This document shows positions 4,571-60,887 of a stretch of DNA of 64,000 nucleotides, piece by piece. The stretch comes from an uncultured Candidatus Saccharibacteria bacterium (lineage in GTDB: Bacteria; Patescibacteriota; Minisyncoccia; Phycocordibacterales; UBA918), in contig CAYGLK010000001.1 of the NCBI GenBank assembly GCA_964350985.1, positions 91,018 through 155,017 on the forward strand, given 5' to 3'. The notes below the pieces were generated by a model. That model ran no database searches and was not told the DNA's origin. It saw only the letters and a program-made list of their open reading frames with translations. The position numbers were made by a program, and so were the translations under genes. Position 1 is the stretch's first letter, and each line of letters begins with the position of its first letter.

Positions 4571-4591
4571 TTAAATATATTAAAAGTAAAA

Positions 4592-4618
4592 ATCCCCTTA
4601 AGGGGATTTTTACTTTTT
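4592..4618 (+). terminator. rho-independent terminator after rnc
   Basis: Hairpin AAATCCCCTTAAGGGGATTT followed by a T-tract. Confidence 0.6.
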
Positions 4619-9701: not shown

Positions 9702-9705
9702 CTAA

Positions 9706-9775
9706 TTTTGTTCCAGTGATTTTCTCAAAGAGGGAAAATCACTGGAACAAAATACCGATTTGCAGAAAATCGGTA
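9706..9775 (+). terminator. tandem hairpins (19-bp perfect inverted repeat plus a second hairpin and U-run)
   Basis: TTTTGTTCCAGTGATTTTC-TCAAAGAGG-GAAAATCACTGGAACAAAA, then TACCGATTTGCAGAAAATCGGTA, then TTTCT. Member of the GTTCC...GGAAC hairpin family. Confidence 0.55.
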
Positions 9776-9796: not shown

Positions 9797-10066
9797 ATGA
9801 ACACAATTAAACTACAGAATCGTGGCACTTTAACTTTACCTAAAAAAATTCGTGAAGTTTTAGGTTTAGCTGATGGCTCAATCCTGCAAGTGTCTTCTGA
9901 CAAAAATAGAATTATTTTGGAAAAAATTACGACAGTTTCCTCAGATGATTCAGAACTACTGGGAGATATTAAACAGTCTTTGGCTGATATTAAGAAAGGT
10001 GATTTTATTGAGTTTAGCTCAATAAATGAATTTAAAAAGAAAGCTAAAGCTTATGGTGAAAATTAG
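9797..10066 (+). CDS. AbrB/MazE-family (SpoVT-AbrB swapped-hairpin) antitoxin
   Basis: MNTIKLQNRGTLTLPKKIREVLGLADGSILQVSSDKNRIILEKI matches the SpoVT_AbrB domain. Stop overlaps the toxin start by 14 nt. The ORF-track start at 9716 is a read-through of the upstream hairpin. Confidence 0.7.
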   Translation: MNTIKLQNRGTLTLPKKIREVLGLADGSILQVSSDKNRIILEKITTVSSDDSELLGDIKQSLADIKKGDFIEFSSINEFKKKAKAYGEN

Positions 10067-10301
10067 GATATCTAAGACAGCTTTAAAACAATATCAAAAT
10101 CTTTCTCCTGAACTAAAGAAAAAAACTGATAAGCAATTTGCCTATCTTTTGTCAGACCATAAACATCCTTCACTGAAAGCAAAAAAGTATCGTACAGAAG
10201 ATGATCTCTGGCAGGCGCGTATTGATCGTAATTGGCGTTTTTATTTCTTCGTTGTGTCACCAAACTATTTGATTGTTTCTATCATAGCTCATCCAAAGTA
10301 A
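10053..10301 (+). CDS. RelE/ParE-superfamily toxin
   Basis: MVKIRISKTALKQYQNL...DLWQARIDRNWRFYFFVVSPNYLIVSIIAHPK matches the RelE/ParE C-terminal pattern (R-x-RiiY ... ghR/HPK). Translationally coupled to the upstream antitoxin. Confidence 0.7.
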   Translation: MVKIRISKTALKQYQNLSPELKKKTDKQFAYLLSDHKHPSLKAKKYRTEDDLWQARIDRNWRFYFFVVSPNYLIVSIIAHPK

Positions 10302-12812: not shown

Positions 12813-12887
12813 AAGACACTTTCACTTTGAGTTTGGCGGTTCTACCTATTGACCAAATTTATTCTATCTGCTACTCTAGCGCCACTT

Positions 12888-13376
12888 ATGTTAATGATGC
12901 GTTTACAACGAATTGGTCGCAAAAACGACCCCTCTTACCGTTTGGTTGTCGTAGACAAGCGAACTGGTCCTAAGAGTAACAAGCACATAGATCACTTGGG
13001 TTCTTATAATCCTAAGCAAGGTCAGGTGCAGATTGATGCTGTTAAGGCAAAAGATTGGTTGAGTAAAGGAGTACAAGCTTCTGACACAGTTCACAATCTT
13101 TTAATTACTCACAAGGTTATTGAAGGTAAGAAGCGAAACGCTCTACCACGAAAGACACCTATTATTGATGAAGCTAAAGTAAAGGCAGAAGCTGAGGCAA
13201 AAGAAAAAGCTGAAGCAGACGCAAAAGCTGCTGCAGAAGCAGCTGAGGCGGCAAAGAACGCTCCAGTAGAAGAAACTCCAGCCGCTGAGGAAACTCCAGC
13301 TGAAGAGCCAAAAGCTGAAGAAGCTCCAGAAGAGACACCTGCTGAAGAGCCAAAGAAAGAAGAAGCAGCTGCTTAA
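12888..13376 (+). CDS. rpsP: 30S ribosomal protein S16 with Ala/Glu/Pro/Lys-rich C-terminal tail
   Basis: MLMMRLQRIGRKNDPSYRLVVVDKR...SYNP matches the S16 core. A ~70-aa low-complexity tail (KAEAEAKEKAEADAKAAAEAAEAAK...ETPAEEPK) follows. Confidence 0.8.
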   Translation: MLMMRLQRIGRKNDPSYRLVVVDKRTGPKSNKHIDHLGSYNPKQGQVQIDAVKAKDWLSKGVQASDTVHNLLITHKVIEGKKRNALPRKTPIIDEAKVKAEAEAKEKAEADAKAAAEAAEAAKNAPVEETPAAEETPAEEPKAEEAPEETPAEEPKKEEAAA

Positions 13377-13407
13377 GTATACAAAAGCTAAATACTAGCT
13401 TGCACCA

Positions 13408-13436
13408 AATCGGGATTTACTCCCGTTTTTTTGTTG
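13408..13436 (+). terminator. terminator after rpsP
   Basis: CGGGATTTACTCCCG followed by TTTTTTT. Confidence 0.5.
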
Positions 13437-13518
13437 ACGGTACTAATCTATTCTCGTATTATTATAAAAGCAGCACCACAAACGGAGCGTGCTTACCAGA
13501 ATACTAAAATATTGATGT

Positions 13519-13872
13519 ATGGATACCCACGAAGATAAGCAATTTCTTGAGACTTTAGTAAAATCATTGGTTGATCACCCTGAAGCTGTCAAAATTAATC
13601 GGACAGTAGATGAGATGGGAGTTTTGTTGATGTTAGATGTACACGCTGAAGATATGGGGAAGATTATCGGCCGTTCAGGTAATACAGCCAAAGCGATAAG
13701 AACTTTACTTCGAGTAGTAGGAATGAAGCATGACGCTCGAGTAAATCTAAAGATCAATGAACCAGAAGGAGGACGAGGAATGAATAGTGAAATGAGTGAA
13801 GCGATGCGAGAGGATAATTTGGCTACTGAGCCTAAATCACTCGACCAGGCCATAGAAGACCTAAAGATTTAA
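13519..13872 (+). CDS. KH-domain RNA-binding protein (YlqC/UPF0109-like)
   Basis: LVKSLVDHPEAVKINRTVDEMGVLLMLDVHAEDMGKIIGRSGNTAKAIRTLL matches a KH domain. Its position between rpsP and trmD is conserved. Confidence 0.75.
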   Translation: MDTHEDKQFLETLVKSLVDHPEAVKINRTVDEMGVLLMLDVHAEDMGKIIGRSGNTAKAIRTLLRVVGMKHDARVNLKINEPEGGRGMNSEMSEAMREDNLATEPKSLDQAIEDLKI

Positions 13873-13894
13873 TACTGGAAAATTTCTTTGTTGG

Positions 13895-13965
13895 ACTACA
13901 AAATTTTTCGGTCAAAGTACTATTCGTACATTTCTCTCAAAATTTTTTGTCCGCCTCGAAATTTT
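13895..13965 (+). repeat. GTAC-core conserved intergenic element, copy C1
   Basis: CAAAATTTTTCggtCAaaGTACtattcGTACattTCtCTCAAAATTTTTTGtCCGCCTCGAAAT; see findings. Confidence 0.6.
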
Positions 13966-13999
13966 CACAGTCTAAATCTTTAGGTTTGTAAGAGTATAC

Positions 14000-14035
14000 A
14001 AAAGCCCCGGCGCTACGCGCCGGGGCTTTTGTATG
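14000..14035 (+). terminator. hairpin between the KH-protein gene and trmD
   Basis: AAAGCCCCGGCGCTACGCGCCGGGGCTTTTGT. Confidence 0.55.
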
Positions 14036-14049
14036 CTAGGATTTTATCA

Positions 14050-14730
14050 ATGCATTTTCATATCATCTCAATCTTTCCAGAATTGTGTCAAACCTACCTA
14101 GAGGCAGGTGTTCTTGGACGGGCGCAAAAAACAGACAAAGGGCAGGGGGCAAAGATACGCGGTAAAAAGATGTCGGTTTCATATTACAATCCTCGTGACT
14201 ACTCTAGCGATGCTCGAAAGCGAATCGATGATCGTCCATACGGTGGTGGTCCAGGTATGGTGATGCAAGCATTGCCAATAGTCCAGGCTTGGGCTGCAGC
14301 AGTAGGAAGGAAGCGTGACCAGAAAAAGGTTAAGACTTTAATCATGTCTCCACGCGGTACGACCTTCACTCAAGCTAAGGCTAAAGAATACGCCAAGAAG
14401 TATGATCATCTGGTTTTAATAAGTGGACGCTATGAAGGGATTGATGATAGAGCGAGGCAAATACTCAACGCTGAAGAAATATCAGTGGGTGATTATGTCC
14501 TGACAGGCGGAGAGTTACCAGCTCTGACTATCATTGACGCAACTGCCAGACAAATCCATGGAGTACTCGGTACCTTTGAATCTTTGGAGGACGAACGTGA
14601 TACAAATGGGGAAGCTTACACTCGCCCCGAAGTTTTTAAATATAAAGGGAAGACTCACTCAGTCCCCAAGGTTTTAGTTGAAGGCAATCATAAAGAGATA
14701 GATAAGTGGCGTTCGGGCAAGGGGAAGTAG
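14050..14730 (+). CDS. trmD: tRNA (guanine37-N1)-methyltransferase
   Basis: MHFHIISIFPEL...DDRPYGGGPGMVM...GRYEGIDDR matches TrmD motifs. The ORF-track TTG at 14029 is a likely read-through; Met at 14050 preferred. Confidence 0.85.
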   Translation: MHFHIISIFPELCQTYLEAGVLGRAQKTDKGQGAKIRGKKMSVSYYNPRDYSSDARKRIDDRPYGGGPGMVMQALPIVQAWAAAVGRKRDQKKVKTLIMSPRGTTFTQAKAKEYAKKYDHLVLISGRYEGIDDRARQILNAEEISVGDYVLTGGELPALTIIDATARQIHGVLGTFESLEDERDTNGEAYTRPEVFKYKGKTHSVPKVLVEGNHKEIDKWRSGKGK

Positions 14731-14802
14731 CGTTTATTTTGACGATTTGAGTAATTTATAATATAAAGCACTGGTGCAATAAGGCACTACAGGGAGTTGT
14801 CC

Positions 14803-15165
14803 ATGCAAGTTTACTTGTCGCGACGCGTCAGTTCATTTTATTCTGACGTGACCCATATTCCGATTTCGACACTCTTGCGGTGTCTCAGGAACGGGCGGTA
14901 TGTCTTGGCGGAAAAGACAGACTCCGGTCCTGCGGAGATGATTGTCATCATTTGGGACTGCAAGATTCGGCTGCCAATTGTGCTCATCTTGATTGATGAC
15001 CAAAAGGGCAAGTGGAAGGTAACCAGGCTTTTTAAGCTTTTGCCTGGAAAGAAAACCCTTGGTCGTCGCAGAGTACCGGTATCACCTTACTGGGCTGGTC
15101 ACGCAAAGGTGATGAGTAACCGGTCTGCCAAACGCAGAGATCAACGGCCCTGCAGACGGGCCTAA
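14803..15165 (+). CDS. hypothetical Arg-rich small protein with HTH-like N-terminus (paralog 1)
   Basis: Strong RBS AGGGAG 6 nt before ATG. GC-rich. Shares the RY(V/I)(L/V)...I(I/L)(I/M)WDC...P(I/V)(V/I)(L/I)(I/V)L core with the next ORF. Confidence 0.5.
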   Translation: MQVYLSRRVSSFYSDVTHIPISTLLRCLRNGRYVLAEKTDSGPAEMIVIIWDCKIRLPIVLILIDDQKGKWKVTRLFKLLPGKKTLGRRRVPVSPYWAGHAKVMSNRSAKRRDQRPCRRA

Positions 15166-15241
15166 GTTCTTTTTGGTCTAAGTCCAGGTAAATGCGTAGC
15201 GTTTGCCTGGACAAGGGCCTCTAACTAATGGGGGAGCTGAG

Positions 15242-15586
15242 ATGAAAGCTAAATTGAAGCCAGGTCACGCCATTGAACAACTGAGAGCCAGGACTTCTCT
15301 TAGAGCTAAAACAGTAAGAAGGTGGCTTAAGGAAGATCGCTACATTGTGCTTCCCGGTACACGAAGATCTGTGGCAAATATTGGGATACTGATGTGGGAC
15401 TGTTTTGGACACCAACCAGTCATAATAGTTCTTTTGAAATCCATGGATACATATGTGGTTAAGACAGTCATGGTTCCAAGCAAAGGTAGGCGCTGGAACG
15501 GACGTCTGGTGGAAACTGATTGGAATATCAAACAAGTCAAACAACTTTGTACACTAGAATCAGCTGAAAAAACAAGGAAGAGTTGA
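15242..15586 (+). CDS. hypothetical Arg-rich small protein with HTH-like N-terminus (paralog 2)
   Basis: RBS GGGGGAG 5 nt before ATG. LRAKTVRRWLKE is a resolvase/transposase-type HTH-like segment. Paralogous to the preceding ORF. Confidence 0.5.
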   Translation: MKAKLKPGHAIEQLRARTSLRAKTVRRWLKEDRYIVLPGTRRSVANIGILMWDCFGHQPVIIVLLKSMDTYVVKTVMVPSKGRRWNGRLVETDWNIKQVKQLCTLESAEKTRKS

Positions 15587-15587
15587 A

Positions 15588-15640
15588 ACCCCTGAGTAAA
15601 GCAAACGCGTGCGTTTGCTTTACTCAGGGGTTTTTCTTGC
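15588..15640 (+). terminator. strong rho-independent terminator
   Basis: CCCCTGAGTAAAGCAAACGC-GTG-CGTTTGCTTTACTCAGGGG (20-bp stem) followed by TTTTT. Confidence 0.75.
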
Positions 15641-15833
15641 TTAATTCTCCAGATTTGTTATAATCCCGCCACATACGTAAAGAGGTCTCGGGTGAGTTAT
15701 GGTTGGGAGATGATTTCGTGTCGCACACAAGCAATTGATGTCGATATTAATAAAATAAAACAAACGGGTTGATAAAGCGCACGTAGCGCGTTTTGCTGTT
15801 CGTTTGTTAGGGGTAATAATCATTTAGTGTTTT

Positions 15834-18800
15834 ATGGATACAACACATAAGGATCGTACAATCTCAGTTGGTAATTTACCTCAAAAGCGGTTTGAGGTTA
15901 GTCCACAGCCGAGAATTCCATTACCAGATTTGATCGAACCACAACACGAGTCATATCGTTGGTTCATCGAAACAGCTCTTAAAGAAATCTTTACCGAGTT
16001 TTCACCTATCAGTGACTACTCAGAAAAGAAATTTGAATTAAAGTTTAAGAAGTATGAACTTGGTTCACCTAAATGTACTCCAGAGCAAGCTAAAGAAAAT
16101 AAACTAACTTACGAAGCTCCACTACGAGCGCACGTGATTTTGAAGAACAAAACTTTTGAATCTGACAAGGATCAAGAGATTTTCATGACGGACCTACCAG
16201 TAATGACTGAGCAAGGAACTTTCATCATCAATGGTGTAGAAAGAGTTATTGTGCCTCAGCTAGCACGTTCTTACGGTATCTTCTTTACTCAAGCTGAATC
16301 AAAAGGAAAAACACTTTTTGGTGCCAAGATTATTCCAGCTCGTGGCGCTTGGGTAGAAATCGAATCTGAAGCAGACGGAGTTATCTATGTAAAGATCGAC
16401 CGAAAGAAGAAATTCCCAATCTCTTCTCTTTTGCGCGTTCTTGGTGTTGATAAGGAAAAGGACATGATTGAGCTTGTGAAAGGTGTACCTCGAGGAGAGG
16501 AATACCTAAAGGCGACAATCGCTAAGGACCCAGCTCTAACTAAAGACGAGTCTTATATTGAAATCTACAAGCGTCTACGTGACGGGGACTTAGCTACTGT
16601 TGATAACGCTCGAGACTTTGTTAATTCTATTTTTGCTCCAGAACGCTACGACCTTTCTGAAATCGGACGACACCACTTCAACGAACGATTTGGCCGACCA
16701 ATCGACAAAAAAGCTACTGACGAACGAACTATCTCAATTGAAGATATGCGTTTGATCATGACTCACATCATCACTCAAAACCACGAACCAGGTGCTTTGG
16801 CTGACGATATCGACCACCTAGGATTCCGACGAGTACGATACTTTGGTGAAATGCTCCAACAACGAGTGCGTGTTGGTATGACTCGAATGAAGCGAAATAT
16901 TCAAGACAGAATGTCTACTATCGAAGCGGAAACTTCTTTGCCGATGCAGATCATCAACCCACGTCCGCTACAAGCTGCGATTAAAGAATTTTTCAGTACT
17001 AACCAGCTTTCTCAATTCTCACAACAACAAAACATCCTAGCTGAGATTGAACACTTGCGTACTTTGTCTGCTTTAGGTCCTGGTGGACTTACTCGAGAAC
17101 GAGCTAGTTTTGAAGTACGTGACATTCACCCAAGTCACTATGGTCGTCTTTGCCCAATCCACACACCAGAAGGTCCAAACATTGGTTTGATCTTGCGTCT
17201 TTCAATGTACTCAAGAGTAAACCGTTTCGGTATCATCGAAACTCCTTACGCTAAAGTAGAAAAGGGAGTTGTTACTGACGAGATCGTTTACTTCAATGCT
17301 CATGAAGAAGAAAAGTTCAACATTGCCCATGCGGCGATTGAACTTGATTCACACGGAAAGATTAAGTCTGACTTTGTCGAAGCTCGAAAGAAAGGTGACC
17401 CAAGAATGATTGCCCGAAAAGATGTTGAATACATCGATATTGCAACTAACCAACCTTTCTCAGTAGCGACTTCAATGATTCCTTTTTTGAATCACGACGA
17501 CGCCAACCGTACTCTGATGGGTTCAAACATGCAGAAGCAGGCGACTCCTTGTCTAGTACAAGAGGCGCCGTTGGTTGCGACTGGAGTAGAAGGAATGGTA
17601 GCTCGAGATACAAGTCGAGTGATCTTTGCTAGTGAAGCTGGAGAAGTGGTGGAGTGTGACGCTCGTCATGTTGTAGTTAAGGATAAAGACGGAAAGAAGA
17701 AAGACTATCCTTTAACAACTTTTCAACGAACAAACGACTTCTCTGCTTTCTATCACCGTCCCGCTGTAACTGTTGGAAAGAAGGTTAAGCGAGGAGACTT
17801 GCTAGCTGATACATCATCAACTGACAATGGTCAGATTGCGGTAGGGCAAAATGCTCTAGTAGCTTTTATGAGTTGGAATGGTGCTAACTACGAGGATGCG
17901 ATTGTTATTTCAGAAAGACTCGTAAAGCAAAGTAAATTCTCAACCGTACACTTAGACGAACTTGATGTTTCTGTTCGAGATACAAAGTTAGGTCCAGAAG
18001 TAACTTCTTCTGACATTCCTAATGTGTCTGAACTTAAACTACGAAACCTAGATGAAAACGGAATTATCCGCATCGGAGCTGAAGTACGACCAGGAGATAT
18101 TTTGGTTGGAAAGGTAACTCCAAAGGGAGAAACTCAACTAACTCCAGAAGAAAGACTACTACGTTCTATCTTTGGTGAGAAAGCTAAGGATGTTAAAGAT
18201 ACTTCTCTTCGACTCGAAGCAGGAAAGCGTGGTCGAGTAATTGGAGTAAAAATCTTCTCACGAGAAAACGGTGACCAACTAGAAAGTGGTGTTATCAAGC
18301 GAATCCACATTACTGTGGCGCAAGTTCGTAATGTTTCTGTTGGAGATAAGTTGGCTGGACGTCACGGAAACAAGGGAGTTATTTCTCGAATTCTTCCTGA
18401 AGAAGACATGCCATACACAGAAGACGGACAACCAATCGACCTACTTCTAACACCGCTTGGAGTACCTTCACGTATGAACCTTGGTCAGATTCTTGAGCTG
18501 CACTTAGGAATGGCTGCTAATACTCTTGGCTACCAAGCTATCGTACCGCCATTTGCTGGAGCATCAGAAACTCATGTTAAGGCTGAACTTAAAGCAGCTG
18601 GTCTACCAGAAGATGGAAAGATTCAACTACGTGATGGTTTGACTGGAGTCGAGTTTGCACAAAAGACAGCTGTTGGATACATGTATATCCTTAAGCTGCA
18701 CCACATGGTGGAAGACAAGATCCACATGCGATCAATTGGGCCGTACTCTCTTATTACTCAGCAGCCACTTGGAGGAAAGGCGCAGGTTGGAGGACAGCGA

Positions 18801-22725: not shown

Positions 22726-22744
22726 ATCCTACTTAAAGCATTAA

Positions 22745-22780
22745 AAAACAGGACGGCCTTCGGTCGTCCTGTTTTTTAAT
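22745..22780 (+). terminator. terminator after rpoC
   Basis: CAGGACGGCCTTCGGTCGTCCTG followed by TTTTTT. Confidence 0.7.
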
Positions 22781-24846: not shown

Positions 24847-24879
24847 TTAAAAGAAGTTGCTTATTAATACTTTATTATA

Positions 24880-24919
24880 AAACTAGTTTATCTATCATCA
24901 GGGATAGATAAACTAGTTT
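24880..24919. promoter_or_regulatory. palindromic operator site a (TTATCTATC-N6-GATAGATAA family)
   Basis: AAACTAGTTTATCTATC-ATCAGG-GATAGATAAACTAGTTT, 17-bp perfect arms. Lies just 3' of the TrpR-like regulator gene. Confidence 0.6.
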
Positions 24920-24929
24920 TATTATTTTC

Positions 24930-29136: not shown

Positions 29137-29146
29137 ACTAAATAAA

Positions 29147-29183
29147 AACAGCGCGGCCTACGGCCGCGCTGTTTTTATTTGAG
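29147..29183. terminator. bidirectional terminator
   Basis: AAAAACAGCGCGGCCTACGGCCGCGCTGTTTTTATTT. Confidence 0.7.
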
Positions 29184-31223: not shown

Positions 31224-34220
31224 ATGACTGATTCTACTAATTTTAAAGCTGCCTTAGCAACACTAAATAAAGCCCAAAAAGAGGCTGTTTTGACTATAGA
31301 AGGGCCGGTCATGGTGATTGCTGGTCCTGGTACTGGAAAGACTCAGATTTTGACTCTCAGAATCGCTAACATCCTCATGGAAACAGATACTGCCCCTGGT
31401 AGTATCTTGGCCCTGACTTTTACAGAGTCTGGTGCCAAGGCTATGCGTGAGCGACTACGTCAGTATATAGGCGCTACTGCTTACCAGGTACCTATTTTTA
31501 CTTTTCATGGTTTTGCGCAAAAGTTGATTTCAGATTATCCAGATGCTTATGAAAGAGTTGTTGGTGGTCGACCAATCAATGACTTAGAAAAAATCACCAA
31601 TATAGAAAATATTATTAATGGTGGGGAAGTAAAGCTCCTTAGACCTTTTGGTAATCCAACTTATTATGTAACTCATATCCTAAGAATTATTGGGCAGTTA
31701 AAACAAGAATACGTAACCCCAGACAACTTCCTAAAGATTATTGAAAGACAAGATCAAGAGCTTTTGGGAATCGAAAAAATTCACCAAAAAGGAGCTCATA
31801 AGGGAAAGGTGAGAGGAGAGTATACTAATAAAGAAAAAAGTATAGCCAAAAATAGAGAGCTGCTTTTTATCTACCGCCAGTATGAGGCTTTACTCGGTGA
31901 GCAAAATTTTTATGATTTTGAAGACATGATTGTTGAGACTATTAATGCTCTTTCAAATAATGAAGGGATGTTAAGGGATCTACAGGAAAATTATCAATAC
32001 ATCTTAGCTGACGAACATCAGGACGTTAATGGTTCTCAAAATAAAATTTTAGAATTATTGTCTTCTTTCCATGAGTCACCAAACATTTTTGTGGTAGGTG
32101 ATGAGAAGCAGGCTATCTATCGCTTTCAAGGAGCGTCTCTAGAAAACTTTTTATATTTTACCGAGCACTATCCAAACACAAAAGTTATTAGTCTTGAAGA
32201 AAATTATCGATCTGGACAACCTATTCTTGATGCAGCACATAGCTTGATGAGAGTTGAGTCAGGACCACTAAAAGAATTACGACTAGAACTCAAGGCTTCA
32301 CTGGTCCCTAAGGCAGAATTAACTAGACACTCTTTTTCTCACCAGGCAGTGGAAGACTTGTGGCTAACTAATGAAGTCAAGAAAAAAATAGACACAGGAG
32401 TATCAGCTAGCGAGATAGCTGTTATTGTTAGAACCAATCGTGAGGTTGAACAGGTAACTACTCTTTTACGTAAGCAAGGCATTGCGGTAATGGCTTCAGC
32501 TGATGGTGATATCTTACAACATCCAATTACTCACGCCGTACAGACTCTGATCCGGGCTGTTGTTACCACTCAAGATCAAACAGCACTCTTTACCGTTTTA
32601 CATGGTGCTTACTGGGGTATTAGTGCTGACGATCTATTTAAAGTTTTGTCAGCTCAGTCTTATGACCATAACCTGTGGCAAATTATTTCTGATCAAAAAT
32701 ATTTGTTGGAGATTGGTGTAGTAGATACTTCTGTGTTTGAAAATATTGTTAGGGTGATCACAGAGGCGAGACAACTAGAAGTTCATGAAGCTCCACATCG
32801 GGTATTAGAATATCTCTTACAAGAGAGTGGATTAATAAAACACCTAGTGAAGTACGATTCGTTTGAAGGTACCAGGGTTGTTCGTAGACTTTATGACGAG
32901 ATTGAATCTTTGGTCTCACGAGAAGGGATAAATACCCTGAAAGCAATCGCTACAGCTTTTGAGTTACGTATCTCATATAATTTACCTCTAAATGCTCCTT
33001 ATATTGTCACTAGTAGTGAATCAGTTCAGGTAATGACAGCCCATAAATCAAAAGGACTCGAATTTGAAGTGGTATTTGTTCCGCATCTAAACGACAATAG
33101 TTGGGGTGGTTCAGGTAAAAAGAAATACTTTGATATTCCTCTAACTAGGCGGCAGATTGAAGAGGAGGATGATTTTATTGAAGACGAGAGAAGATTGTTT
33201 TATGTGGCTATTACTAGAGCAAAAAGTACACTATTTCTCTCTTCTTCAAAAATGAATATTGAAGGCCGTGAATTAACTGAAGCAAGACTCGTTTCTGATA
33301 TTGAACCAGATTTGATTAAAGAAGTTTCCACCAAAGAAATCGAAGATAATTTTGACCCTCTGGCAAATTTAGCCAGAATGGAATCTATGAGTAAGGTAGA
33401 TAACCAACTCTTACTTAAAATTTTAACTGATCGTGGCTTCTCTGCTACTTCATTGAATAATTACTTACGTAGCCCGTGGGATTATTTTTACCGAAATATT
33501 TTACGCATACCTGAAACCCAAGCACCACATATGCAGTTTGGTACTGCTATTCACAACACTTTGGAATATATGACCAAATTCCGAACCCAAAATGGAAAAT
33601 TACCAAAAATATCCGTCTACAAGAAAAAATTAGAACAAGAACTTAGTCGACTACCTCTTAATATCGAAGAATTTTCACGTTTACTAAAAAAAGGCCTAGA
33701 GTCACTAGTGGTCTACACTGAGCATCTAGAAGCTACTTTATCTAAAAGTGCAAAAGAAGAAATGAAAATAAGAGTAGTGCTGGAGACTGGTATTACTGAA
33801 CTACCTGAATTAGTACTTACAGGTAAATTAGATAGGATTGATCTTGATGACAATGGTCAGGCTATAAGAGTGGTTGATTATAAAACAGGGAAGCCAAAGT
33901 CGAGGAATTTCATTGAAGGTAATACTAAAGATGCTGATGGTGGTTACAAAAGACAGTTGGTTTTTTATGCTCTACTTTTATCACTTCATGATGATGAAAG
34001 GTATGTTTGTAGTGAAGGGACGTTGTCTTTTGTAGAGCCTGACGCAAAGGGTCAGATCAAAGAAGAGAGTTTTGCTATTACACAGCGAGAGATAGAGGCA
34101 CTTAAAACAGAGATAATTTCATCAGTGAAAGAAATTATTACCGGGGAATTTCTAAAGTCAGACTGCGATCCTAAAACTTCTGATTATTGTGACTTGGTAG
34201 AGCAATTTAAAAATAAATAG
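31224..34220 (+). CDS. UvrD/AddA-like SF1 helicase fused to C-terminal RecB-family PD-(D/E)xK nuclease
   Basis: Walker A AGPGTGKTQ and motif II LADEHQDVN. C-terminal nuclease motifs GKLDRIDLDDNG...VVDYKTGKP plus three C-terminal Cys (CSEG, DCDP, DYCDL). Confidence 0.8.
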   Translation: MTDSTNFKAALATLNKAQKEAVLTIEGPVMVIAGPGTGKTQILTLRIANILMETDTAPGSILALTFTESGAKAMRERLRQYIGATAYQVPIFTFHGFAQKLISDYPDAYERVVGGRPINDLEKITNIENIINGGEVKLLRPFGNPTYYVTHILRIIGQLKQEYVTPDNFLKIIERQDQELLGIEKIHQKGAHKGKVRGEYTNKEKSIAKNRELLFIYRQYEALLGEQNFYDFEDMIVETINALSNNEGMLRDLQENYQYILADEHQDVNGSQNKILELLSSFHESPNIFVVGDEKQAIYRFQGASLENFLYFTEHYPNTKVISLEENYRSGQPILDAAHSLMRVESGPLKELRLELKASLVPKAELTRHSFSHQAVEDLWLTNEVKKKIDTGVSASEIAVIVRTNREVEQVTTLLRKQGIAVMASADGDILQHPITHAVQTLIRAVVTTQDQTALFTVLHGAYWGISADDLFKVLSAQSYDHNLWQIISDQKYLLEIGVVDTSVFENIVRVITEARQLEVHEAPHRVLEYLLQESGLIKHLVKYDSFEGTRVVRRLYDEIESLVSREGINTLKAIATAFELRISYNLPLNAPYIVTSSESVQVMTAHKSKGLEFEVVFVPHLNDNSWGGSGKKKYFDIPLTRRQIEEEDDFIEDERRLFYVAITRAKSTLFLSSSKMNIEGRELTEARLVSDIEPDLIKEVSTKEIEDNFDPLANLARMESMSKVDNQLLLKILTDRGFSATSLNNYLRSPWDYFYRNILRIPETQAPHMQFGTAIHNTLEYMTKFRTQNGKLPKISVYKKKLEQELSRLPLNIEEFSRLLKKGLESLVVYTEHLEATLSKSAKEEMKIRVVLETGITELPELVLTGKLDRIDLDDNGQAIRVVDYKTGKPKSRNFIEGNTKDADGGYKRQLVFYALLLSLHDDERYVCSEGTLSFVEPDAKGQIKEESFAITQREIEALKTEIISSVKEIITGEFLKSDCDPKTSDYCDLVEQFKNK

Positions 34221-34221
34221 A

Positions 34222-34258
34222 AAAAGACTCGGATCACTAGTGATCCGAGTCTTTTTCT
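34222..34258. terminator. bidirectional terminator
   Basis: GACTCGGATCACTAGTGATCCGAGTC flanked by A/T runs. Confidence 0.65.
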
Positions 34259-52490: not shown

Positions 52491-52560
52491 TAAATAAAAA
52501 ACCTCACCTGGAGGTTCAGATGGGGCTTGGTCCGGACGCACCTACGGTGCGTCCGGTTAA
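52491..52560 (-). terminator. 70-nt terminator module, copy 2
   Basis: Identical over ~70 nt to 51751-51820. Confidence 0.6.
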
Positions 52561-52958
52561 CGGCCTATGGTCTTTTTCTTGTTCGGCCATTTGACCATCA
52601 CCCACAGTATCCGTAACACGGAAAGGATAAAAAGCAGGCCAAAAAACGATATGTTAAACGCTAGAGTAAGACCAAAGAAAACACCAAGGTCTTTATCCTT
52701 TACTGCCCATAAGAAGGGAACCAAGACTCCGCCAAATGTTGTGACGATAGATAGTCTTAACCCCTCACGACAGAGTGTGCTACCTGTCTCGTGTAGTGTC
52801 GGGGCTACAAAGGCGAAGACTATTGCAGCAATGACCAGTCCGAAGATGGCGCTGGCTACAGCTCCGTTTGAAAACAGAGCTGTATAGGTAGAGTGACGAG
52901 CGTCATACAGCAGGCCAAGCATGACGCCTAGGCTGGCGCAGAACAGAAGTTTTTTCAT
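52557..52958 (-). CDS. hypothetical polytopic membrane protein (133 aa)
   Basis: Four predicted TM helices. Confidence 0.4.
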   Translation of the reverse strand: MKKLLFCASLGVMLGLLYDARHSTYTALFSNGAVASAIFGLVIAAIVFAFVAPTLHETGSTLCREGLRLSIVTTFGGVLVPFLWAVKDKDLGVFFGLTLAFNISFFGLLFILSVLRILWVMVKWPNKKKTIGR

Positions 52959-60638: not shown

Positions 60639-60887
60639 TCAGCTTGCTTTTTTTGGCAATTCGCCGCGAAAAATGAATCTGTGGGCATCGCTGCCAGTAA
60701 GAACAATGGTGCCGCCGTCGCATTTCGTTACCTTGACCGCCGACGTTTTTCCAATAAAGCTTGCATCTTGGATGCATGCATCGACACTAGACCTAGGCAT
60801 AGAAAGCACTGCGAGCAACAGACTGGCGCTGGCAAGCACTATTGCCAGCAAAACACTCTTGATGAACAATGGAAATAATGGGAACAT
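60639..60887 (-). CDS. small secreted/membrane-anchored protein (82 aa) on the GC-rich island
   Basis: Strong RBS GAGGAG 6 nt before ATG. Signal-peptide-like MFPLFPLFIKSVLLAIVLASASLLLAVLS. The antisense plus-strand ORF was rejected. Confidence 0.4.
   Translation of the reverse strand: MFPLFPLFIKSVLLAIVLASASLLLAVLSMPRSSVDACIQDASFIGKTSAVKVTKCDGGTIVLTGSDAHRFIFRGELPKKAS

Follow-up and report, generated by a model that had tools for sequence, protein, structure and literature searches.

Which genes stand between trmD and rpoB in the genome of an uncultured Candidatus Saccharibacteria bacterium, and what might they do there? The stretch of DNA analysed, hereafter referred to as the window, comprises 64,000 nt (contig CAYGLK010000001.1, positions 91,018 to 155,017), within which the gap from the trmD stop codon (14728–14730) to the rpoB start (15834) is made up of two plus-strand open reading frames (ORFs), designated ORF1 and ORF2. 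A previous sequence-only reading regarded these as helix-turn-helix (HTH) proteins of foreign origin. Our analysis favours, with moderate confidence, the view that these ORFs are two diverged copies of a solitary conflict gene with a predicted toxin fold, belonging to a hypervariable family that is restricted to one clade. Genomes of Patescibacteria are small, and a great many of their genes lack annotation; in this instance two ‘hypothetical proteins’ become a defined family, consisting of five sequence clusters amongst ~15 billion proteins. The features of the gap that belong to the gene pair are as follows:

14739–14767 (+): putative sigma-70-like promoter read from the sequence, TTGACG, 17 nt, TATAAA
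14792–14796 (+): Shine–Dalgarno (SD)-like GGGAG, 6 nt upstream of the ORF1 ATG
14803–15165 (+): ORF1, 120 aa, isoelectric point (pI) 11.0, 16 Arg, Arg-rich C-terminal tail
15230–15236 (+): SD-like GGGGGAG, 5 nt upstream of the ORF2 ATG
15242–15586 (+): ORF2, 114 aa, pI 10.7, 12 Arg, S/P-x-H-A motif and W-D-C core
15586–15636 (+): intrinsic terminator, a perfect 23-bp inverted repeat (15586–15633) followed by a T-run

Two divergent coding copies

ORF1 and ORF2 are recognizably related at the protein level (27 % identity across 48 aa by BLASTP, E=7e-7), can be aligned from end to end and are both strongly basic, in agreement with the earlier description of two paralogous basic proteins of ~115–120 aa after trmD. 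By tblastx their match is confined to the two coding frames (E=2e-7), and a nucleotide comparison of the two genes reveals no similarity at the DNA level. Within the aligned core, identity at codon positions 1, 2 and 3 is 0.38, 0.60 and 0.25, respectively. Together, the frame-restricted similarity and the codon-position pattern point to an old protein-coding duplication, rather than to repeated DNA or chance ORFs. The frame of ORF2 is open from 15203; its likeliest start, rather than 15203 or 15224, is the ATG at 15242, which a gene caller also picked. The raised GC content ascribed to both genes is pronounced for ORF1, where GC content at third codon positions (GC3) reaches 0.575, the host mean being 0.32 (z=+5), a value attained by 0 of 416 host windows of 120 codons; ORF2 deviates only mildly, with a GC3 of 0.37 and a codon score at the 3rd percentile.

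A 107-aa ORF also lies antisense to ORF2 (15221–15544, minus strand), but is not kept in homologous loci, and, judging from the sequence, is probably fortuitous. The idea of a conserved antisense ORF at this position was thus rejected, with the plus-strand ORF being the only one conserved across lineages.

A family confined to the closest relatives

Single-sequence, word-indexed homologue searches with ORF1 and ORF2 returned self matches only, the sole other occurrence of either being in a Logan contig of 100 % identity. When 1.84 billion representatives were searched exhaustively by HMMER with a two-sequence profile, three real relatives were recovered, P0003 (110 aa, E=3e-9), P0004 (108 aa) and P0005 (106 aa); a fourth candidate, the WD40 protein P0006, was rejected as a false match. 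No further members emerged from a word search with the resulting five-sequence profile, nor from profile searches (hmmsearch, hhalign) of every gap ORF across ~60 loci. Identity amongst the five members is only 17–36 %, with ORF1 being closer to P0004 (36 %) than to its neighbour ORF2 (21 %); therefore the duplication, or the joining of two alleles, must be old. All five members possess an invariant W-D at the end of the central strand and an invariant Lys in the C-terminal helix, and share a motif, M-x-V-Y-L-S-x-H-A, where strand 1 meets helix 1. The His of this motif is present in four of the five proteins and is Arg in ORF1, whose sequence reads RR at the site of H-A/V in the other members.

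In each relative the family gene is found in the same position. The order is rpsP-KH-trmD-P0005-rpoB-rpoC-dnaG in locus L082, trmD-P0004 type-rpoB in L144, L210 and L214, and trmD, a 245-aa ORF and P0003 in L085. These relatives carry one copy, whilst the window carries two in tandem. The genomes that bear the family are the window's closest relatives, their RpoB proteins being 95.6–96.5 % identical to that of the window, their KH-domain proteins 92 % and their TrmD proteins 76–81 %; the next-closest genomes with the same flanks (L002, L003, L011 and L162) lack it. As the homologues share position, promoter, SD motif and terminator, the cassette is ancestral to this small clade, rather than a recent insertion. 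The suggestion of horizontal acquisition hence stands in part: this is accessory, compositionally odd, SD-led cargo that is missing from most relatives, but it was not acquired recently, given that homologues occupy the same position in the four closest lineages. The sequence-only reading had also named, as the outcome that would speak against it, a conserved housekeeping family at this position in related genomes. A family is indeed present there, but it is hypervariable and clade-restricted, and not a housekeeping one.

Predicted fold and relationship to known toxins

An AlphaFold2 model of ORF2, built with the five-sequence alignment, scored a predicted local distance difference test (pLDDT) value of 81 and a predicted template modelling (pTM) score of 0.74, and an earlier, weaker model gave the same answer as to fold. 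The predicted topology is a strand, helix 9–17, helix 22–30, four strands and two C-terminal helices, i.e. a compact alpha/beta structure with the N-terminal helices packed on a four-stranded antiparallel sheet. The family is predicted to adopt a RelE/ParE-superfamily (BECR)-like fold, as seen in RNA-cutting toxins. Searches of other collections were uninformative: a search of PDB sequences with the family profile produced only WD40 false positives on an ‘hhhWD’ motif, PHROGs yielded nothing usable for ORF1 and ORF2, and a viral fold library returned only unnamed, weak matches.

The family shows no detectable sequence similarity to the models of RelE, HigB, BrnT, MqsR, YafQ, YoeB or ParE. It further differs from RelE/ParE type II toxins in being monocistronic or, in the window, a pair of two toxin-fold genes, with no antitoxin; in its extra C-terminal helices; and in that catalytic residues are not identifiable. 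A resemblance, noted by eye only, is to DUF4258 (PF14076)/Ntox49, which likewise display hydrophobic-x-S/T-x-H-A at the junction of the strand and helix 1, and an extra leading helix with a conserved His. Colicin-like/DUF4258 BECR proteins have been described as possessing a pre-alpha helix and a conserved His (bioRxiv 10.64898/2026.08.28.747851). Helix 1 of the family (residues 9–17) opens with His in four of the five members, consistent with this published description, but the Pfam DUF4258 model gives no match. DUF4258 itself is listed as being of unknown function (PMC11980606), and an antitoxin normally accompanies its genes, in A/T order, whereas those of the present family are solitary.

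Divergence and polymorphism

The degree of divergence within the family is out of keeping with that of its surroundings. Third codon positions agree between family members at only 0.19–0.34, which is the random level, against 0.55–0.66 for rpoB from the same genomes. With third positions randomized, the alleles are older than the species split, although the DNA on either side of them is conserved, as is the pattern for polymorphic cassettes.

Variation at a shorter timescale could be read from the P0004 type, for which 11 near-identical contigs from several samples were available (L084, L144, L208–L216). Its 327-nt ORF contains seven variable sites, all of them nonsynonymous and all of them transversions, four falling within the last nine codons. 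No variable site exists in the 99 nt upstream or the 285 nt downstream, and trmD of the same contigs has a single one in 681 nt. By comparison, the 1779 nt of rpoB contain 24 synonymous sites against 6 nonsynonymous ones (Fisher p=1.7e-4). Between L084 and L208 there are six amino acid differences in the family protein, with 963 nt of flank being identical. For the P0005/P0013 pair, dN/dS is ~0.6 and the changes cluster within the first 23 codons.

Amongst the P0004-type alleles, the 5′ variant (Y7/N7) and the 3′ haplotype occur in all four possible combinations, which indicates recombination. A diversity-generating retroelement (DGR) target was considered and rejected: the seven variable sites are not A-specific on either strand, making such an element unlikely. 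There is also no repeat of the family gene within 14500–16000, and the family loci that were read show no called reverse transcriptase gene beside it.

In possessing a fixed slot, conserved flanks, deeply divergent alleles and amino-acid-changing polymorphism, the family resembles polymorphic toxin and hypervariable conflict loci. It differs from polymorphic toxin loci in having no immunity gene, delivery domain, signal peptide or orphan cassette array.

Promoter, SD motifs and terminator

The putative cassette promoter begins 9 nt past the trmD stop codon, and was omitted by the consensus promoter scan because its −10 hexamer ends in A. An equivalent arrangement, TTGACN-16/17-TATAAA or TAAAAA, is found at the same place in L082, L144 and L085. 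Both ORFs are preceded by the GGGAG-type ribosome-binding sites reported previously, and every homologue is similarly led by an SD-like motif (GGAGGG in L082, GGAG in L084/L144 and GAGGGG in L085). The statement that this genome mostly lacks SDs was upheld as well: no convincing SD was found at plausible starts of 41 long ORFs in the window, and almost all other SD-like matches in the window are internal to genes, which together indicate that the contrast is real. Host genes without an SD include rpsP, rpoB, rpoC and the ATP synthase genes, and their upstream regions are A/T-rich. SD-like motifs also occur at two minus-strand ORFs with no family assignment, 52557–52958 and 60639–60887.

ORF1 and ORF2 are probably carried on one transcript. 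One further element lies between the two coding sequences:

15146–15162 (+): weak 5-bp GC hairpin at the 3′ end of ORF1, with a T-rich stretch after it

This element was returned by the consensus scan only and is not conserved; it may be a partial terminator. Downstream of ORF2, the terminator hairpin has a calculated energy of −40 kcal/mol (z=−9.5). Hairpins that follow the family gene in L082, L084 and L085 are homologous to it, with compensatory changes at 9 of 22 pairs and 93 % of cells paired. Although its 23-bp stem is the longest in the window, as the claim of an unusually strong terminator would have it, the hairpin is not unusual in kind, being one of 14 perfect hairpins with stems of 12–23 bp. 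With 14 such structures in 64 kb, very long perfect stems are the usual terminator style of this genome. They are mostly intergenic (e.g. 4582–4617, 9705–9753, 13996–14034, 22740–22780, 24877–24922, 29140–29180 and 34219–34258).

A variable slot between trmD and rpoB

It had been proposed that the pair occupies a slot normally held by rplS. By its trmD the window falls within the Patescibacteria, class Paceibacteria (Kaiserbacteria-like metagenome-assembled genomes), the best match amongst GTDB species representatives being 75 % identical. In ~55 related loci the gene order is rpsP-KH-trmD-[gap]-rpoB, with a gap of 129–3539 nt; rplS follows trmD in no Paceibacteria relative. L19 was encountered after trmD only in two gammaproteobacterial loci from the same search, and tblastn with Escherichia coli L19 detected no rplS in the 64-kb window or in any Paceibacteria locus. 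The E. coli query was validated by its matches of 62–64 % in the two gammaproteobacterial loci. Neither ORF1 nor ORF2 has a Pfam match to bL19, so neither is counted amongst the L19 proteins. Since the order of this lineage is trmD, gap, rpoB, nothing has displaced rplS, and the assumed synteny is corrected to trmD, a variable cargo slot and rpoB.

The limits of this slot were set by blastn. The sequence from 15650 onwards (rpoB promoter, leader and gene) is 84–86 % identical to L002/L003 and 72 % to L011, and for 14731–15649 no GTDB relative offers a match at the DNA level. On its 3′ side the slot is bounded by the following region, which is outside the cassette:

15637–15833 (+): rpoB promoter (TTGCTT-16-TATAAT, 15637–15664) and 5′ leader of ~165 nt

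What lies within the slot differs greatly between relatives. In L003 (6840–7417) and L007 (6700–7301) it contains a MazEF-type module, in which a PemK toxin (1e-23 and 1e-28, respectively) is preceded by an ORF of 84–92 aa. In L162 there is an unrelated ORF of 167 aa, which is led by an SD and has a hairpin of its own, in L085 (1481–2218) a 245-aa ORF with a hydrophobic N-terminus followed by P0003, and in L208 (215–1165) and L084 a transposase-like gene (HTH_38) inserted beside the family gene. In L011 only ~65 nt separate trmD from the conserved leader, and the slot is effectively empty. Such differing contents (MazEF, a transposase-like gene, unrelated ORFs or nothing) mark the trmD–rpoB gap as a cargo hotspot.

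Possible function and alternative explanations

Under the interpretation we favour, that of a solitary conflict gene family with a toxin fold, the unit would be self-contained, with a promoter of its own, an ORF led by an SD and a terminator in the form of a long hairpin, lodged in the cargo slot between trmD and the rpoB promoter. The family protein would act as a solitary, toxin-like, RNA- or ribosome-directed conflict factor, possibly an RNase, for which the invariant W-D and Lys, together with the conserved His at the start of helix 1, are candidate active-site residues; ORF1, in which this His is missing, may be catalytically altered. We infer a conflict role from the fold, from the company kept in the slot (MazEF, the transposase-like gene), from the patchiness of the family's distribution and from the way in which it evolves. 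An RNase or toxin activity, and the tolerance of such a protein without an adjacent antitoxin, are things that we only infer.

Several observations weigh against this interpretation. Pfam, NCBIfam and PADLOC give no match for ORF1 and ORF2 even at E<=10, nor does Pfam for P0003–P0005, so that, with no model matching any member, RelE/ParE membership holds at the level of fold only. No antitoxin or immunity ORF adjoins the family gene in any lineage: in the relatives a single gene stands between trmD and rpoB, preceded by 63 nt and followed at once by the terminator, and the slot in L082 is too small for an antitoxin ORF. A functional toxin is, for this reason, hard to reconcile with viability. 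ORF1 is without the conserved His. With regard to selection, the polymorphism data concern a relative's allele and not ORF1 or ORF2, and if synonymous sites alone are taken as the neutral class, the ratio of 7:0 against an expected 3.3:1 is not significant (p ~0.16). Finally, the window contains no 16S rRNA, and use of the SD motifs is therefore putative.

The absence of an adjacent antitoxin in every lineage also creates a serious rival, rather unlikely in our estimation, namely that the family comprises non-toxic, small, basic RNA- or ribosome-binding proteins, in which a RelE-like fold has been reused in translation or RNA metabolism. That the gene is solitary in every relative, with no partner ORF, would be expected of such a protein, and its very basic character, its own promoter, SD and terminator, and its location between trmD and rpoB are likewise in keeping with it. 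Much harder to accommodate are its absence from L002, L003, L011 and L162 despite the same flanks, its identity of 17–36 % where RpoB is 96 % identical, and a polymorphism that is entirely nonsynonymous. It is this patchiness, low identity and nonsynonymous polymorphism that lead us to prefer a conflict gene to an accessory housekeeping factor.

A bolder extension of the conflict-gene reading, which we regard as a long shot, is that the family consists of ancient trans-species alleles under diversifying selection at one fixed locus of Paceibacteria, encoding a solitary RelE-fold conflict or defence factor directed at RNA or the ribosome. This factor would be translated by way of a conserved SD in genomes that make no other use of SDs, and its expression would be controlled through SD/anti-SD availability instead of through an antitoxin. 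An active RNase without an antitoxin, or a functionally special SD, would, if true, bear on how conflict genes are regulated and deployed in reduced episymbionts. For now, the result extends the RelE/ParE-like world modestly and within clear limits: the family is new and tiny, falls within a superfamily that is already known, and is odd in being solitary, in its conserved SD in an SD-poor genome, and in its hypervariability with signs of positive selection.

We give little credence to the notion that the two ORFs form a toxin–antitoxin-like pair, in which a degenerate ORF1 neutralizes an active ORF2. Their tandem, probably co-transcribed arrangement, the replacement of H-A by RR in ORF1 and the extra Arg-rich tail of the latter would all fit such a scheme. 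Relatives with one copy, of either type, survive, however, and P0004, which is closest to ORF1, retains the His; moreover, both proteins are basic, with no charge complementarity, and there is here no precedent for a pair of this kind.

The view put forward in the sequence-only reading, that of an HTH regulator pair or a degenerate insertion sequence (IS) OrfA remnant recently transferred into a former rplS site, is very improbable. IS OrfA and resolvase-type HTH proteins are similarly small and basic with two N-terminal helices, and the two such helices of the family (9–17 and 22–30) are superficially HTH-like; ORF1 is atypical in composition, SD use is foreign-like, and an IS insertion in this slot does occur in L208. 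Nevertheless, the segment taken for a resolvase/transposase-like HTH (KTVRRWLKE) has no HTH match in Pfam, NCBIfam, PHROGs or PADLOC, and forms helix 2 of the N-terminal helical hairpin in the RelE-like model. The IS remnant fails likewise, there being no inverted terminal repeats, no IS ends and no transposase with the pair, and the predicted fold being a different one.

It is scarcely credible that ORF1 and ORF2 are spurious ORFs within a non-coding or RNA-coding spacer, for all that they are orphans, face a long antisense ORF opposite ORF2 and show raised GC as some structured RNAs do, since the reading frame is kept in five lineages with codon position 2 more conserved than position 3, conservation does not extend to the antisense ORF, the fold is predicted with confidence and Rfam offers nothing beyond chance matches to the hairpin. 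Rfam was applied with the gathering threshold over the whole window and an E-value threshold over 14700–15860, and, as its only matches were chance ones of miRNA type to this hairpin, the idea of a structured RNA was rejected.

The rpoB leader and other features of the window

The rpoB leader was compared in L002, L003, L011, L082, L084, L162, L009, L114, L123 and L131. It is 79–86 % identical in close relatives, and contains an invariant 17-mer, GTGATGTCGATATTAAT, even where the RpoB N-terminus is only ~81 % identical. A short stem–loop followed by TTTTG (15773–15795) varies in sequence between lineages, and its complementarity stays. No Rfam match was obtained for the leader, which, from its sequence, is a candidate attenuator or cis-regulatory leader. 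A metagenome scan with the 17-mer returned mostly chance matches, with 8 of 120 loci being real, including L144 and L162. An apparent conserved minus-strand ORF in the gap was rejected, as it corresponds to this leader.

Elsewhere in the window, two 139-aa ORFs at 449–1298 were entertained as paralogues and rejected as such. A plus-strand ORF at 9797–10066 resembles MazE/AbrB-type antitoxins (Pfam MazE_antitoxin, 5e-8) and overlaps the start of an 82-aa ORF (10054–10301, plus strand), the C-terminal half of which is RelE/ParE-like by eye, with no Pfam or NCBIfam match and no SD. This pair (9797–10301) is probably a conventional toxin–antitoxin module. Upstream of the slot (12849–14050), no rimM separates the KH-domain gene from trmD, the interval being only 177 nt long and containing a 20-bp hairpin, and the S16 protein carries a long C-terminal extension that is rich in Ala, Glu, Lys and Pro.
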